Source: a virus | Taxonomy: Duplodnaviria > Heunggongvirae > Uroviricota > Caudoviricetes | Virus record (IMG/VR): IMGVR_UViG_2713896904_000005 | Reading direction: 5' to 3' (one strand) | Length of the DNA: 5,471 bases | In this document: one piece after another, positions 790-4,912 of the stretch | Position numbering within the stretch: the stretch's first letter is position 1 | Layout of the letters: the number at the start of each line of letters is the position of its first letter | Translations under genes and position numbers: made by a program | Notes under the pieces: model-generated | What the model was told of the DNA's origin: nothing | Databases searched by the model: none | What the model saw: only the letters and a program-made list of their open reading frames with translations

Positions 790-1179
790 TCAGGCGGCTG
801 CACCCGCCGGTTTCTCGTACTTCCTGATAGTGATCTCGACCTTCCCTTCCGGGATAACCGGTCCCCACTCCACCAGCATTCTTTTCACCTGACTGTCGTC
901 TTCCCACACACCCGCGTGGGTCAGGGCGTCAAACAGCGCCTTGTTATAGTTGTCCAGATCGCGGATCCGGTTATCCGGAGGAAACAACACGATCTCCACT
1001 GAAGCAGGTGCCGACGTTGGTTTTGGCAGACGACGTAACTGCTCAACTATTGCTGCACACGCCGCGCTCTGGAATTTGTGCCCCGCTGCGCTTATCAGGC
1101 TCTTACCAGCAAACGCCCCTTTGTTAGGGTGTCGCCAGTACGTGTTCACGCTGGGCGGAAAAGGCAGTATTAGCTTCAT
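790..1179 (-). CDS. rusA: Holliday junction resolvase RusA (crossover junction endodeoxyribonuclease)
   Basis: 129-aa ORF MKLILPFPPSVNTYWRH...DNRIRDLDNYNKALFDALTHAGVWEDDSQV matches E. coli RusA as I recall it (LPWPPSNNRYYR...[29 protein letters not shown]), including the acidic catalytic residues. Start overlaps the upstream gene by 4 nt (ATGA). Confidence 0.9.
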   Translation of the reverse strand: MKLILPFPPSVNTYWRHPNKGAFAGKSLISAAGHKFQSAACAAIVEQLRRLPKPTSAPASVEIVLFPPDNRIRDLDNYNKALFDALTHAGVWEDDSQVKRMLVEWGPVIPEGKVEITIRKYEKPAGAAA

Positions 1180-1502
1180 ACTTTCAGGCCCCTCTCATGT
1201 AACCAGTGGGCTGCACGCAGCCTGGCGTTTTCCTCACCGGCAAGCAGTGAGCGGATAATCCCGACCGCCTCGCTGTCGTCGTCCTTCACCGCGGTATGAA
1301 GCGTTATCCCCCGGGCCACGCCACGCTTTATCGTGATGACGCCTTTTTTCTCCAGCGCACGAAGATGCTCCACCGCTGCATTCACCGAACGGTATCCCAG
1401 CATGGTTGCCACCTCCTGATTGGTTGGTGGGAAGCCACGTTCTTTCTGATAAGAAATCAGCATATCCAGCACCTGCTGCTGGCATTGAGTTAACGTCGTC
1501 AT
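1176..1502 (-). CDS. LexA N-terminal DNA-binding-domain-like protein lacking the S24 peptidase domain (108 aa)
   Basis: MTTLTQCQQQVLDMLISYQKERGFPPTNQEVATMLGYRSVNAAVEHLRALEKKGVITIKRGVARGITL aligns colinearly with the LexA N-terminus ([68 protein letters not shown]). The ORF stops about 40 residues after the domain; no Ala-Gly site or Ser/Lys dyad. ATG at 1502..1500 overlaps the upstream TAA (TAATG) and follows a GGGGG SD-like run. The ORF track's alternative start at 1535 is a GTG. Confidence 0.7.
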   Translation of the reverse strand: MTTLTQCQQQVLDMLISYQKERGFPPTNQEVATMLGYRSVNAAVEHLRALEKKGVITIKRGVARGITLHTAVKDDDSEAVGIIRSLLAGEENARLRAAHWLHERGLKV

Positions 1503-1990
1503 TAAGCCCCCACGTAATTCCCTGACAGATACCACTCTTCACCCGATGCAGCGCGCTTGCTGCTTTTCCGTAAGCACCGCTCACGACGCGCCAGAAAATT
1601 GTTTCGTTCTGGCTGGGAGTGGCTTTCACGGAATGCCGCCATCCACACCGTTGCAGCACGACGGTATAAGCCCCTGGACTCCAGTTCTTCAGCCTGGCGG
1701 GTCAGGCACAAAATCTCCCGCGGGTCGTTAGTGCCGACATAGAAATTGCGCACAGGTCTGGTTTCACGAACTGGTTGTGGTTCCGCCTCCTGCGCTCTCT
1801 CAGTCAGGCGCGGGAAATGTCTGCGTGTATCCCCTTCACAACGGTGAGCCACACGACCACTCTGACGTAACTTGCTTGCTGACTGCAGAACGCGCTGCCG
1901 TGAGTAACCTGCAAAAGCATCCGCAATGTCTCCGGAAGTACACCCCGGATGGGCTTCAATGTATTTCTGAACTTCATTCAAAAGACTCAT
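1502..1990 (-). CDS. Hypothetical small regulator with a PerC-like C-terminal motif (162 aa)
   Basis: ORF directly after the O-like gene. ATG at 1990..1988 is 2 nt after the O stop (TGA 1995..1993) and is preceded by GGGGGTGA. The C-terminal segment LESRGLYRRAATVWMAAFRESH...RRERCLRK resembles the PerC/Pch family motif (GLxRRAAxxW...CL) from memory. The N-terminal part (LLNEVQKYIEAHPGCTSGDIADAFAGYSRQRV) looks like a small helix-turn-helix. The track's 1996 start is a GTG two codons upstream. Confidence 0.6.
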   Translation of the reverse strand: MSLLNEVQKYIEAHPGCTSGDIADAFAGYSRQRVLQSASKLRQSGRVAHRCEGDTRRHFPRLTERAQEAEPQPVRETRPVRNFYVGTNDPREILCLTRQAEELESRGLYRRAATVWMAAFRESHSQPERNNFLARRERCLRKSSKRAASGEEWYLSGNYVGA

Positions 1991-1992
1991 GA

Positions 1993-2934
1993 TCACCCCC
2001 TGAATCCTGCCGGGATCTGGCTGTAGTCCACTTTGTCGTAACTGGCTTTGAAGTACGGGTCTTCGCGTTTTTCGGTGTACGTGCTGACGGACGGCGATAA
2101 GCGCAGGGAAAGCTCATCCCATTTTTCCCGCAGCTTCGACGGGCTGAGCACGTTACGGCACCAGAACGGATCGCGACTGACGCGGCTGTACATCTCGCAG
2201 ATTTGTTTGTGAGTACGACCATCCTGCACACACATCAGGCGAATTTCGTTTGCCCAGGCTGTCCAGTTCGGTTCTTTGGGACGAACCACCTCGCCGTCAC
2301 ATTCGGCGGCCTGCTCGTACAGGGCGATGATTTTTTTCCAGAGCCACTGTGCGCAGGTCAAATCATCCTGCGTTCCCCACTGGCGCTTTTTAGGGCTGAA
2401 TACAACCGCATCAGGATGGCGAGTTAAAAACTCCTGTTCAGCCGTCTGCGTGTCCGGTTGCGAAGCGTCCGGACGAGAAGTTTTTTTATCTGACGGATCA
2501 TGTTTTGATTTTACTGACGGATCCCCGCCAGATTCTGACGGGTGAAAACCCGCTTTTTTGCCAGATTTCGACGCATCAAATTTTGACGGGTCAGATTTTG
2601 ATGCGTCAGATTTTGACGGGTCAGAATCTGACAATTGAGAAAATGCCGCTGCCTGAAGCTTCGCAATGTTAAGCTGATAAACATTCGACGCATTGCGGTT
2701 ACCCTGGCGACGCGCCTTACGCGTTAACCAGCCTTCTGCTTCCAGCCGTGCGATAGCCGTTCTGACGGTACTCATCCCCGCGCCAATCTGACGGGCAATG
2801 GTTTCAATTGATGGCCAGCACACACCTTCGTCATTACTGAAATCAGCCAGGCGGGCCATAATTGCCACGCTGGATAATTTCATGCCTGACGCTGCGCAAC
2901 CATCCCATACATAGCCGGTTAATTTAGTGCTCAT
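1993..2934 (-). CDS. Replication initiator protein, lambda O-like (N-terminal helix-turn-helix, iteron-encoding linker)
   Basis: 313-aa ORF with N-terminal MKLSSVAIMARLADFSNDEGVCWPSIETIARQIGAGMSTVRTAIARLEAEGWLTRK, typical of phage replication-initiator HTH domains. AGAGG SD 6 nt before ATG 2934. Low-complexity linker (DPSKSDASKSDPSKFDASKS) is encoded by a tandem DNA repeat array, the lambda O arrangement. Follows cro/CII-like genes. Confidence 0.85.
   Translation of the reverse strand: MSTKLTGYVWDGCAASGMKLSSVAIMARLADFSNDEGVCWPSIETIARQIGAGMSTVRTAIARLEAEGWLTRKARRQGNRNASNVYQLNIAKLQAAAFSQLSDSDPSKSDASKSDPSKFDASKSGKKAGFHPSESGGDPSVKSKHDPSDKKTSRPDASQPDTQTAEQEFLTRHPDAVVFSPKKRQWGTQDDLTCAQWLWKKIIALYEQAAECDGEVVRPKEPNWTAWANEIRLMCVQDGRTHKQICEMYSRVSRDPFWCRNVLSPSKLREKWDELSLRLSPSVSTYTEKREDPYFKASYDKVDYSQIPAGFRG
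2486..2635. repeat. Putative phage origin of replication: array of 15-bp iterons (consensus TCAGATTTTGACGGG) plus flanking AT-rich tract, inside the O-like gene
   Basis: Five contiguous 15-bp units at 2561..2635 (ccagatttcgacgca / tcaaattttgacggg / tcagattttgatgcg / tcagattttgacggg / tcagaatctgacaat). Further copies of the TGACGG core at 2491, 2515 and 2536. A T-rich stretch at 2477..2490 lies on the side expected for an unwinding element. Confidence 0.7.
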
Positions 2935-2943
2935 GACCGACCT

Positions 2944-3282
2944 CTATTTCCCTGAATTTACGACGAAACTGTTCGAGCGGGCTGAAGCACTCATGCTCAT
3001 AGCCTTCACGGAGGTAGATAACCCGTTGTGTTTCCGGCTCCCAACGAATGACTCTGACGGGCACTCCGTAGTGATCTTTGAACCAGCGGTTAACTTGTCG
3101 CAAAGGACTGTCTCCTTCTGCCGGTTGAAATCACCCACAGCCCACTCTGCAAAGCTGTGGGTTACAATTTCCCTGTCACCTGGTACATTCACTGCATAGC
3201 AATACTCCACCTTCGCTTTTCCACCCGGTACAGGAAGCGCAATCAGTTGCGAGCGACGGTAGTGTGTTGTTAAACTGTTCAT
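2944..3282 (-). CDS. Hypothetical protein (112 aa), no recognisable domain
   Basis: ORF between the CII-like and O-like genes. ATG 3282..3280 overlaps the upstream stop (ATGA) and is preceded by GGAGA (rc of 3292..3296). Position and coupling argue for a real gene. Confidence 0.55.
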
Positions 3283-4074: not shown

Positions 4075-4164
4075 ACAATATGTACCTCCGGTGTACATAT
4101 TACATGATTAAAATGAACCTTCAAGATACTTGTACCTTAACGGTACAAGGGTTTTAATTTCGTT
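4075..4164. promoter_or_regulatory. Divergent promoter/operator region (OR-like) between cro-like and CI-like genes
   Basis: Two 19-bp inverted-repeat sites: 4080..4098 ATGTACC-tccgg-TGTACAT (6/7 half-site symmetry) and 4130..4148 TTGTACC-ttaac-GGTACAA (perfect). Candidate cro promoter on the minus strand: -35 TTGAAG (rc of 4119..4124), 16-bp spacer, -10 TAATAT (rc of 4097..4102). Candidate cI promoter -10 TTTAAT at 4153..4158, just before ATG 4165. Confidence 0.6.
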
Positions 4165-4839
4165 ATGAAAACAATCCATGACATCCGGCGGTCTAACGCC
4201 AGAAAACTGAGAGATGGTGTTGGCGGGAATTCTTCCTTTGCCACTATGATTGATCGCGAGCCAACCCAGACCAGCAGGTTTATGGGAGATGGTGCTACTA
4301 AAAATATCGGTGACAGCATGGCACGACACATCGAAAAATGTTTCGACCTGCCTGTAGGATGGCTCGATCAAGAACACCAGACAACGAACATCACAAAAAA
4401 ACCTGATGTTTCAATCACTAATAAACAAATCACATTAGTCCCTGTCATATCATGGGTACAGGCCGGAGCATGGAAAGAAGTTGGATATTCTGAGGTTGAT
4501 TTGAGCACAGCAGAAACGTATCCCTGCCCTGTACCCTGTGGGGAAATGACTTATATCTTGCGGGTGATAGGTGATTCAATGATTGATGAGTACCGCCCGG
4601 GAGACATGATTTTTGTCGATCCTGAAGTACCTGCCTGCCACGGTGACGACGTTATTGCATTGATGCACGATACAGGTGAAACCACCTTCAAAAGGTTGAT
4701 AGAAGATGGGACACAGCGTTATCTCAAAGCGTTAAACCCAAACTGGCCTGAGCCTTACATTAAGATCAACGGTAATTGCTCTATAATTGGTACTGTGATT
4801 TTCTCAGGAAAACCAAGAAGATACAAAATCAAAGCCTAA
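4165..4839 (+). CDS. CI-like phage repressor with N-terminal HTH and C-terminal LexA-type S24 autopeptidase domain
   Basis: 224 aa. HTH region (FATMIDREPTQTSRF...MARHIEKCFDLPVGWLD). Probable cleavage site VQAG-AW (compare lambda CI VQAG-MF). Ser nucleophile in LRVIGDSM and Lys in TTFKRL, matching the LexA/CI Ser-Lys dyad context. Divergent from the cro-like gene. Confidence 0.9.
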   Translation: MKTIHDIRRSNARKLRDGVGGNSSFATMIDREPTQTSRFMGDGATKNIGDSMARHIEKCFDLPVGWLDQEHQTTNITKKPDVSITNKQITLVPVISWVQAGAWKEVGYSEVDLSTAETYPCPVPCGEMTYILRVIGDSMIDEYRPGDMIFVDPEVPACHGDDVIALMHDTGETTFKRLIEDGTQRYLKALNPNWPEPYIKINGNCSIIGTVIFSGKPRRYKIKA

Positions 4840-4874: not shown

Positions 4875-4878
4875 ATAC

Positions 4879-4912
4879 TTGACAATGTACCCTTTAGATA
4901 CATAATGTACCC
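4879..4912 (+). promoter_or_regulatory. Strong sigma70-type promoter (pL-like) with embedded operator
   Basis: -35 TTGACA (4879..4884), 16-bp spacer, -10 CATAAT (4901..4906). The spacer and -10 contain the 19-bp site ATGTACC-cttta-GATACAT (4885..4903), same architecture as the two OR sites. A further ATGTACC half-site lies at 4905..4911. Confidence 0.65.

Follow-up and report, generated by a model that had tools for sequence, protein, structure and literature searches.

Which protein is made directly after the replication initiator of a temperate enterobacterial phage, and what does it do there? The question is raised by a stretch of DNA of 5,471 nucleotides (the window, by which the whole stretch is meant) from a virus of the Caudoviricetes, IMG/VR record IMGVR_UViG_2713896904_000005. 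A preliminary description, made from the letters alone, read the gene behind the O-like initiator as a PerC-like regulator in the place normally held by a helicase loader, and suggested that it could be either a regulator of lysogenic conversion or an unrecognised replication accessory factor. The gene is yfdN, a common prophage gene that is already known and annotated. Genome comparison indicates that it is an optional accessory gene and not a stand-in for the loader, and the protein joins a predicted winged helix to a PerC-type domain.

YfdN and its two domains

The open reading frame (ORF) of 162 amino acids was confirmed on the minus strand, 1990..1502, after the O-like gene, with the motifs quoted for it exactly in place: GLYRRAATVW forms residues 107-116 (1672..1643) and RRERCLRK residues 135-142 (1588..1565). 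It runs from ATG at 1990 to TAA at 1504..1502; the RefSeq start is a GTG at 1996, which gives 164 amino acids. The stop codon of the initiator (TGA, 1995..1993) lies 2 nt before the ATG, and the GTG start would overlap it as GTGA. On a 99.5% identical chromosome, the RefSeq/PGAP label reads "yfdN: PerC family transcriptional regulator", and the PHROGs family phrog_1324 matches the protein over its full length (E 5e-77). The parts of the gene are as follows.

1502..1990, minus strand: yfdN coding sequence, 162 amino acids (ORF list, Pfam PerC, full-length phrog_1324, RefSeq annotation)
1811..1990, minus strand: N-terminal winged-helix domain, residues 1-60, basic, Ren-like (predicted structure)
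1724..1810, minus strand: disordered linker, residues 61-89 (model confidence, pLDDT, and alignment variability)
1544..1723, minus strand: PerC-type domain, residues 90-149, three helices, predicted TPR-like or MIT-like fold
1505..1543, minus strand: conserved C-terminal tail, residues 150-162 (...EEWYLSGNYVGA)

How widespread is this gene? Over its whole length the window matches prophages of ∼500 complete E. coli genomes at 98-99.5% identity, and yfdN alone occurs in 2,668 of the 5,426 complete E. coli genomes (49%), including K-12, which is negative for the enterocyte effacement locus (LEE). There it is b2357 of the cryptic prophage CPS-53, flanked by yfdO, a truncated O remnant, and yfdM, a truncated methylase. 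YfdN is 95-98% identical to SfV orf40, SfIV gp42 and the products of genes of SfII, mEp460, Ayreon and Stx2c phages, 67% identical to ST64B sb43 and 45% to the product of a gene of Salmonella phage F1055; relatives are also found in phages of Salmonella, Hafnia and Citrobacter. The ratio of nonsynonymous to synonymous substitution rates (dN/dS) of yfdN is 0.14-0.35.

No functional test of yfdN was found in the literature. The gene has been termed "the K12 unique PerC homologue" and only deleted to clean up a reporter strain (PMC5931665), its over-expression from the ASKA collection changed the glycogen content (PMC2853380), and nitric oxide induces it along with further genes of prophages (PMC5320621). 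A literature search for SfV orf40 led to ORF numbers unrelated to it. A search for defence systems with PADLOC gave no meaningful match for yfdN. Fusions with Dam, RusA or HTH_36 were met among the close homologues as singletons, and these were taken as artefacts of assembly or frameshift.

As for the C-terminal half, the preliminary reading of a PerC-type motif was borne out by the profile check: Pfam PerC (PF06069) matches residues 98-149 at 36.2 bits (cut-off 22.6), in agreement with the RefSeq name, and the half alone (72 amino acids) scores 38.6 bits. The domain is predicted to be a three-helix, TPR/MIT-like protein-binding unit. In two alignments, one of 30 and one of 46 diverse sequences, L103, G107, R111, A112, R136 and C139 are invariant or nearly so.

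The N-terminal segment had been described as resembling a small DNA-binding fold, and structure prediction gives residues 1-60 such a shape: three helices (H1-H2-H3) and a beta-hairpin wing, the fold of MarR/ArsR-like winged helices. Protein-binding winged helices also rank among its top fold matches. Of 30 diverse family members, 29 have a basic N-domain, and the mean net charge among the 30 is +3.2 for the winged helix and +5.2 for the PerC domain; the N-domain most likely binds DNA. Between the two domains, residues 63-84 have a pLDDT below 50, and the linker varies across the family in sequence and in length (10-32 residues). Both domains are under similar purifying selection: against the Salmonella orthologue, dN/dS is ∼0.19 for the winged helix and ∼0.17 for the PerC domain, with ∼0.36 for the linker. 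A profile search of PDB sequences with YfdN returned nothing at E<=10, and Foldseek against viral predicted structures returned generic winged-helix matches only, none at E<=0.001.

An exhaustive profile search brought the family to 160 cluster representatives. Some 30 of these are two-domain proteins of 133-173 amino acids, down to 21% identity, which keep the N-terminal pattern MSL...FI..NPG.T and the PerC core LE..GL.RRAA..W...R..RR..C. The tail motif L-x-G-[RNKH]-[FY]-x-G is retained in members down to 21-30% identity, and among close homologues W153-G161 are invariant, the tail being modelled with low confidence. The short relatives fall into two groups, a few proteins consisting of the PerC domain plus tail, and the classic PerC/Pch type. 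A further architecture, winged helix plus tail without PerC, was dropped when the exhaustive search showed nearly all N-domain-only matches to be frameshifted fragments or chimeras. One member, P0212 (214 amino acids), carries two tandem winged helices ahead of the PerC domain.

The place behind the initiator

Upstream of yfdN lies the initiator gene, with an array of repeats inside it.

1993..2934, minus strand: O-like replication initiator, 313 amino acids (HTH_36; phrog_391, E 1e-134)
2491..2636, no strand assigned: iteron array, 15-bp period, core 2562-2636; two repeat families, five copies at 15-bp spacing

The initiator is 99.4% identical to SfIV gp41. Its N-domain is HTH_36, and residues 131-277 are homologous to the C-terminal domain of lambda O (34.9% identity, E 4e-18; blastp E 1e-24), the part of O that recruits P-DnaB. 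The array consists of direct repeats resembling CAGATTTTGACGGGT, encodes the repetitive peptide SDPSKSDASKSDPSKFDASKS and has GATC in two copies; it is a probable replication origin, with the layout of ori-lambda, where the iterons lie within O. In the complete phages with the yfdN module (SfIV, SfV, mEp460, Ayreon), genes for P, DnaC, a helicase or a primase are absent: these phages are lone-initiator replicons. The C-domain of the initiator is thus of the type that binds P in lambda, yet neither the window nor SfIV holds a P-like gene.

Does YfdN, then, do the work of lambda P and deliver DnaB (or DnaB-DnaC) to the complex of initiator and origin? Its gene stands directly behind that of an initiator with a C-domain homologous to the P-binding domain of O, in a type of phage whose complete genomes carry no loader gene, and to this extent the loader slot of the preliminary description holds. 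The function does not follow. Membership of a loader family, or a lack of PerC similarity, had been set beforehand as a finding on which that description would fall; what was found is PerC similarity, no match to the P, DnaC/IstB, DnaD or DnaT families in Pfam, NCBIfam or PHROGs, and no ATPase motifs, while the same Pfam library, as a positive control, finds lambda-P (PF06992) at 203 bits in Klebsiella phage 2b LV-2017. With lambda P and DnaC-type loaders YfdN shares only the position directly after the initiator gene, and neither sequence nor predicted fold; it is, moreover, optional.

What fills the slot differs between phages. In Klebsiella phage 1 LV-2017, a full-length initiator with 73% identity to that of the window is followed directly by Dam; in Citrobacter phiNP, an initiator with an 85% identical N-domain is followed directly by a methylase; and the family hidden Markov model (HMM) finds no YfdN-like ORF in the complete record of either phage. 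The initiator of Yersinia YeP1 is followed by a protein of 156 amino acids unrelated to YfdN, which was tested as a very distant member and rejected. In another phage, a 78-residue version without the winged helix fills the slot, so that this domain is dispensable there. YfdN follows initiators of at least three C-terminal types, each of which is also found without it; an obligate pairing is not seen, and one two-domain member stands directly behind AlpA, where an operon of a satellite-like element begins (L010 5316-5795), with no initiator nearby. Lastly, a homologue of the N-domain exists alongside a bona fide P protein, as described below. These comparative data already largely refute the replacement of the loader by YfdN, which we regard as very unlikely.

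The end of the initiator deserves a comment of its own. Initiators with otherwise different C-domains share an end peptide, ...VDYSxIPxGFRG, encoded here by the last ∼15 codons (1993-2040). This form goes with YfdN, and a variant, ...VDYSLPENSGFR[ST], occurs in initiators of phages without it; besides the window, the observation covers loci L001, L002, L003, L008, L011, L012, L015 and L016. The peptide may serve a host factor as a docking site. Just upstream of it, SfV-type and window-type initiators meet in a mosaic joint.

If not P, which lambda gene is the counterpart? In Klebsiella phage 2b, O (Pfam Phage_rep_O) and P (Pfam Phage_lambda_P) are followed by a gene of 100 codons that overlaps the end of P by 4 bp (L019 4621-4923), which is the position of ren in lambda. 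With the family HMM, its product matches the N-domain of YfdN at 35.6 bits (profile positions 4-72); among PHROGs, it finds the YfdN family at E 3.6e-8 and the "Ren-like exclusion protein" family at E 8.3e-7, and in profile comparison with Ren it reaches 81% probability. The N-domain of YfdN itself matches phrog_142 (Ren) at E 0.003 in the same register, and hhalign of the YfdN family against an alignment of 12 Ren sequences gives 67% probability and E 5e-5, the aligned stretch beginning at Met1 and closing with the wing (1-59 versus 1-58). Neither direct BLASTP nor a shallow profile links YfdN to lambda Ren, and the signal, a moderate one, needs the deeper profile. On this sequence evidence, the N-domain is probably related to Ren; because MarR-like winged helices cross-match easily, the relation is not established. 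Either way, the N-domain relative is found in a phage that also has a true loader, so that the slot corresponds in lambda to ren rather than to P.

Ren is defined genetically as permitting escape from Rex exclusion. It shares with YfdN its genomic position, a start that overlaps the preceding stop, and an N-domain of the same size and predicted type; it differs in its length (96 amino acids), its C-terminal half, the absence of a PerC domain and the lack of any detectable pairwise similarity. In lambda (P/ren), in Klebsiella phage 2b, in the window (initiator/yfdN) and in the distant members alike, the first gene after the replication genes starts over the stop of the previous one. The Klebsiella protein ends in ...NQCLAGVRK, resembling the YfdN-family tail ...WCLAGRFAG; from this single case one might suspect that tail and winged helix belong together, the PerC domain being an insertion between the two.

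Kinship of the YfdN winged helix with the origin-binding winged helix of the initiator, or with the LexA-type domain encoded downstream, was considered and rejected, the probabilities being 9% and 1%. As this similarity is only the generic one of helix and wing, competition of YfdN at the iterons is unsupported.

Relatives and possible roles of YfdN

The best-known proteins with this domain are PerC, from the pEAF plasmid of enteropathogenic E. coli, and PchA/B/C, from prophages of enterohaemorrhagic E. coli. They share with YfdN the ∼50-residue core of PF06069, A..LE..GL.RRAA..W......R....RR..C, and like it they are basic, encoded on mobile elements and above the Pfam gathering threshold. Classic PerC/Pch proteins, however, are single domains of ∼90-105 residues that start with M[IV]KDxKAEELE and carry a C-terminal extension, ...F..L...MGI....FR, whereas YfdN, at 162 residues, has in addition a 60-residue winged helix and a linker, and ends in its own motif, L-x-G-[RN]-[FY]-x-G; by size and tail it falls outside the classic small single-domain type. 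Their places also differ: the YfdN gene stands in the early operon of a phage after the initiator, those of PerC/Pch in moron or plasmid positions.

Other likenesses are looser. The ANR family (NCBIfam NF033650) matches residues 96-142 weakly, at 23.4 bits and below the cut-off of 32; ANR proteins (Aar and relatives) are, like YfdN, small, helical, basic and suited to binding regulators, but they are single-domain and under 10 kDa. A PerC-like protein of a phage-inducible chromosomal island (PICI) behaves like an ANR repressor, and other PerC-like proteins from satellites repress LEE1 or do nothing (PMC11773190). Regulators of the PlcR/Rap/AimR type, which combine a helix-turn-helix with TPRs, resemble YfdN in layout only, with no sequence relation, and its three helices (∼1.5 repeats) are too few for the peptide-binding superhelix of those receptors. 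A satellite-like (PICI-type) element (L022/L023 5001-5312) carries the classic PerC form, of 103 amino acids, behind Ash, primase, DUF927 and SSB genes.

What, then, might YfdN do? The reading that we prefer, and to which we give about an even chance, is by analogy with its relatives: YfdN would be an optional, delayed-early accessory DNA-binding regulator that uses a PerC-type partner-binding module. This rests on the PerC match, the winged helix, the basic character of both domains, the purifying selection, the protein-binding type of the fold, the lack of a promoter of its own, the overlap of start and stop codons along the operon and the optional presence of the gene, together with the three or more types of initiator that it accompanies, the AlpA-linked member, and the short PerC-domain proteins found in the slot or behind satellite primase genes. 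The gene belongs to the delayed-early (pR-type) operon of SfV/SfIV/e14/CPS-53-type temperate phages, would be transcribed only once the cI-like repressor is removed, and would be translationally coupled to the upstream initiator. The basic winged helix, a probable remote relative of Ren, would place the protein on phage DNA or on AT-rich foreign DNA, and the flexible linker would join it to the PerC module. Pch, in which no DNA-binding domain can be recognised, acts as an activator by upsetting the nucleoprotein complexes of H-NS/StpA/Hha (PMC4764244). By analogy, the PerC module and the tail of YfdN would bind a protein partner, most plausibly the nucleoid-silencing proteins, and would remodel a nucleoid-protein or transcription complex, so that gene expression or access to the DNA is altered in lytic development. 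YfdN would not load the helicase. What the analysis shows is the identity of the gene, its domains, its family by sequence, its place in the operon and its optional presence; the DNA binding, the partner, the anti-silencing and the targets are inferred.

Two other roles have to be weighed against this one. YfdN may be a Ren-like accessory, helpful and non-essential, that works with the initiator/origin complex or shields replication from Rex-type abortive infection, in the manner ascribed to lambda Ren. The Met1-to-Met1 alignment with Ren and the bridging Klebsiella homologue in the ren position argue for this, and so do the 4-bp overlap with the initiator gene, conserved across members of 21-45% identity, and the PerC-domain genes that also trail satellite replication genes; the near-universal coupling to the initiator gene and this recurrence in satellites are what keep the idea alive. 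However, the similarity is remote and could mirror no more than a shared MarR-like fold, tight overlaps between genes are general in such operons whatever the function, and Ren is dispensable in lambda for P-lethality and for replicative killing (PMC3640518). YfdN, furthermore, does not co-vary with initiator type, is missing from phages with the same initiators, and has a two-domain member far from any initiator. A Ren-like role, the main rival of the reading preferred here, is rather unlikely on balance, if clearly ahead of the loader discussed above; in this weaker sense, the replication accessory factor first suggested may still hold.

It is somewhat less likely still that YfdN activates virulence or host genes in the lysogen (LEE/ler or other regulons) as PerC and Pch do; this is possible only as cross-talk. 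In its favour are the family membership by sequence, the glycogen effect of over-expression (PMC2853380), the induction of Pch genes together with prophages by SOS-inducing drugs, and the removal of yfdN from K-12 as a precaution when ler activation was measured (both PMC5931665). Against it stands the operon. Promoter prediction yields no sigma-70-like site on the coding strand between cro and RusA, and the junctions are tight: TGA-N2-ATG (or GTGA) between initiator and yfdN, TAATG between yfdN and the next gene, which encodes a LexA-type DNA-binding domain and whose start overlaps the yfdN stop, and ATGA between that gene and RusA. Because the genes touch or overlap and no internal promoter is predicted, cro to RusA form one long repressor-controlled operon; yfdN lies deep in it without any promoter-like site to itself, and in a stable lysogen it should not be expressed. 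The gene is carried by half of the E. coli genomes, LEE-negative K-12 among them, and by phages of Salmonella, Hafnia and Citrobacter; the protein is without the C-terminal extension of classic PerC/Pch, and other non-canonical PerC homologues do not activate LEE1 (PMC11773190). A regulator of lysogenic conversion in the strict sense, one of the two options first offered, is thus improbable.

Compared with the accessory regulator that we prefer, a bolder proposal is about as doubtful as the virulence role: that YfdN-type proteins are a natural fusion of a Ren-like and a PerC domain with a native job at the origin or replisome, such as clearing H-NS-type silencing or shielding from Rex-like abortive infection, and that PerC and Pch would be their domesticated, truncated descendants.

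The early operon and the wider meaning of the family

The phage is a temperate one of enterobacteria, and the window covers its immunity and early-right region. The plus strand carries a cI-like S24 repressor (4165-4839), and the other genes around yfdN and the initiator are the following.

4098-3874, minus strand: cro-like gene
3842-3279, minus strand: cII/YmfL-like gene
3103-2924, minus strand: DUF4222 gene (59 amino acids), one of the small ORFs before the initiator
1176..1502, minus strand: LexA-DNA-binding-domain-only protein, 108 amino acids from the ATG at 1502 (Pfam LexA_DNA_bind, phrog_362, RefSeq boundaries of the coding sequence)
1179-790, minus strand: RusA
beyond RusA, minus strand: KilA-N gene, of which only the start lies in the window

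Pfam LexA_DNA_bind matches the product of the gene behind yfdN at 68.7 bits, starting at residue 12 of the longer form of the ORF. The protein (1176-1502) has no S24 protease domain, and it is kept in the yfdN-type module across distant phages. Between the two genes there is usually an adenine methyltransferase: dam in SfV, a counterpart in mEp460 and the yfdM remnant in K-12. It is missing at the junction here (1500-1504), and SfIV and Ayreon lack it too; in other E. coli copies, an insert of ∼650 bp at this point contains the methyltransferase. In distant relatives, this position is held by three unrelated methyltransferase families (Dam PF05869, MT-A70 PF05063, MethyltransfD12 PF02086).

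Upstream of the initiator, 2924-3282 holds two overlapping ORFs in different frames, each of which matches phage families: 3282-2944 (112 amino acids; phrog_1170, annotated as SfIV gp40) and the DUF4222 ORF at 3103-2924 (59 amino acids), annotated by PGAP. Databases annotate only one of the two, and which one varies. The first 63 residues of the longer ORF match a separate 63-residue family, phrog_20047, and the long form may therefore be an over-extension. Between cI and cro, 4129-4149 is a perfect palindrome with 8-bp arms, CTTGTACC-N5-GGTACAAG; the scan flagged it as terminator-like, and an operator is more likely. Akin to it are "ATGTACCC" words that occur again at 4877-4910.

What does all this mean for the family? 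The find of yfdN is in itself of little weight: half of the sequenced E. coli carry the gene, and catalogues already list it (yfdN, SfV orf40) with a PerC-family annotation. More instructive is its setting. The right lambda analogue of yfdN is ren and not P, and genes with a PerC domain turn up repeatedly towards the distal ends of the replication operons of phages and satellites. A predicted TPR-like, partner-binding PerC domain tethered to a winged helix that probably binds DNA offers a simple model for how a PerC module may be targeted. To know what the family does natively in phages would be a clue to the origin of the PerC/Pch virulence regulators and to what lambda Ren does.
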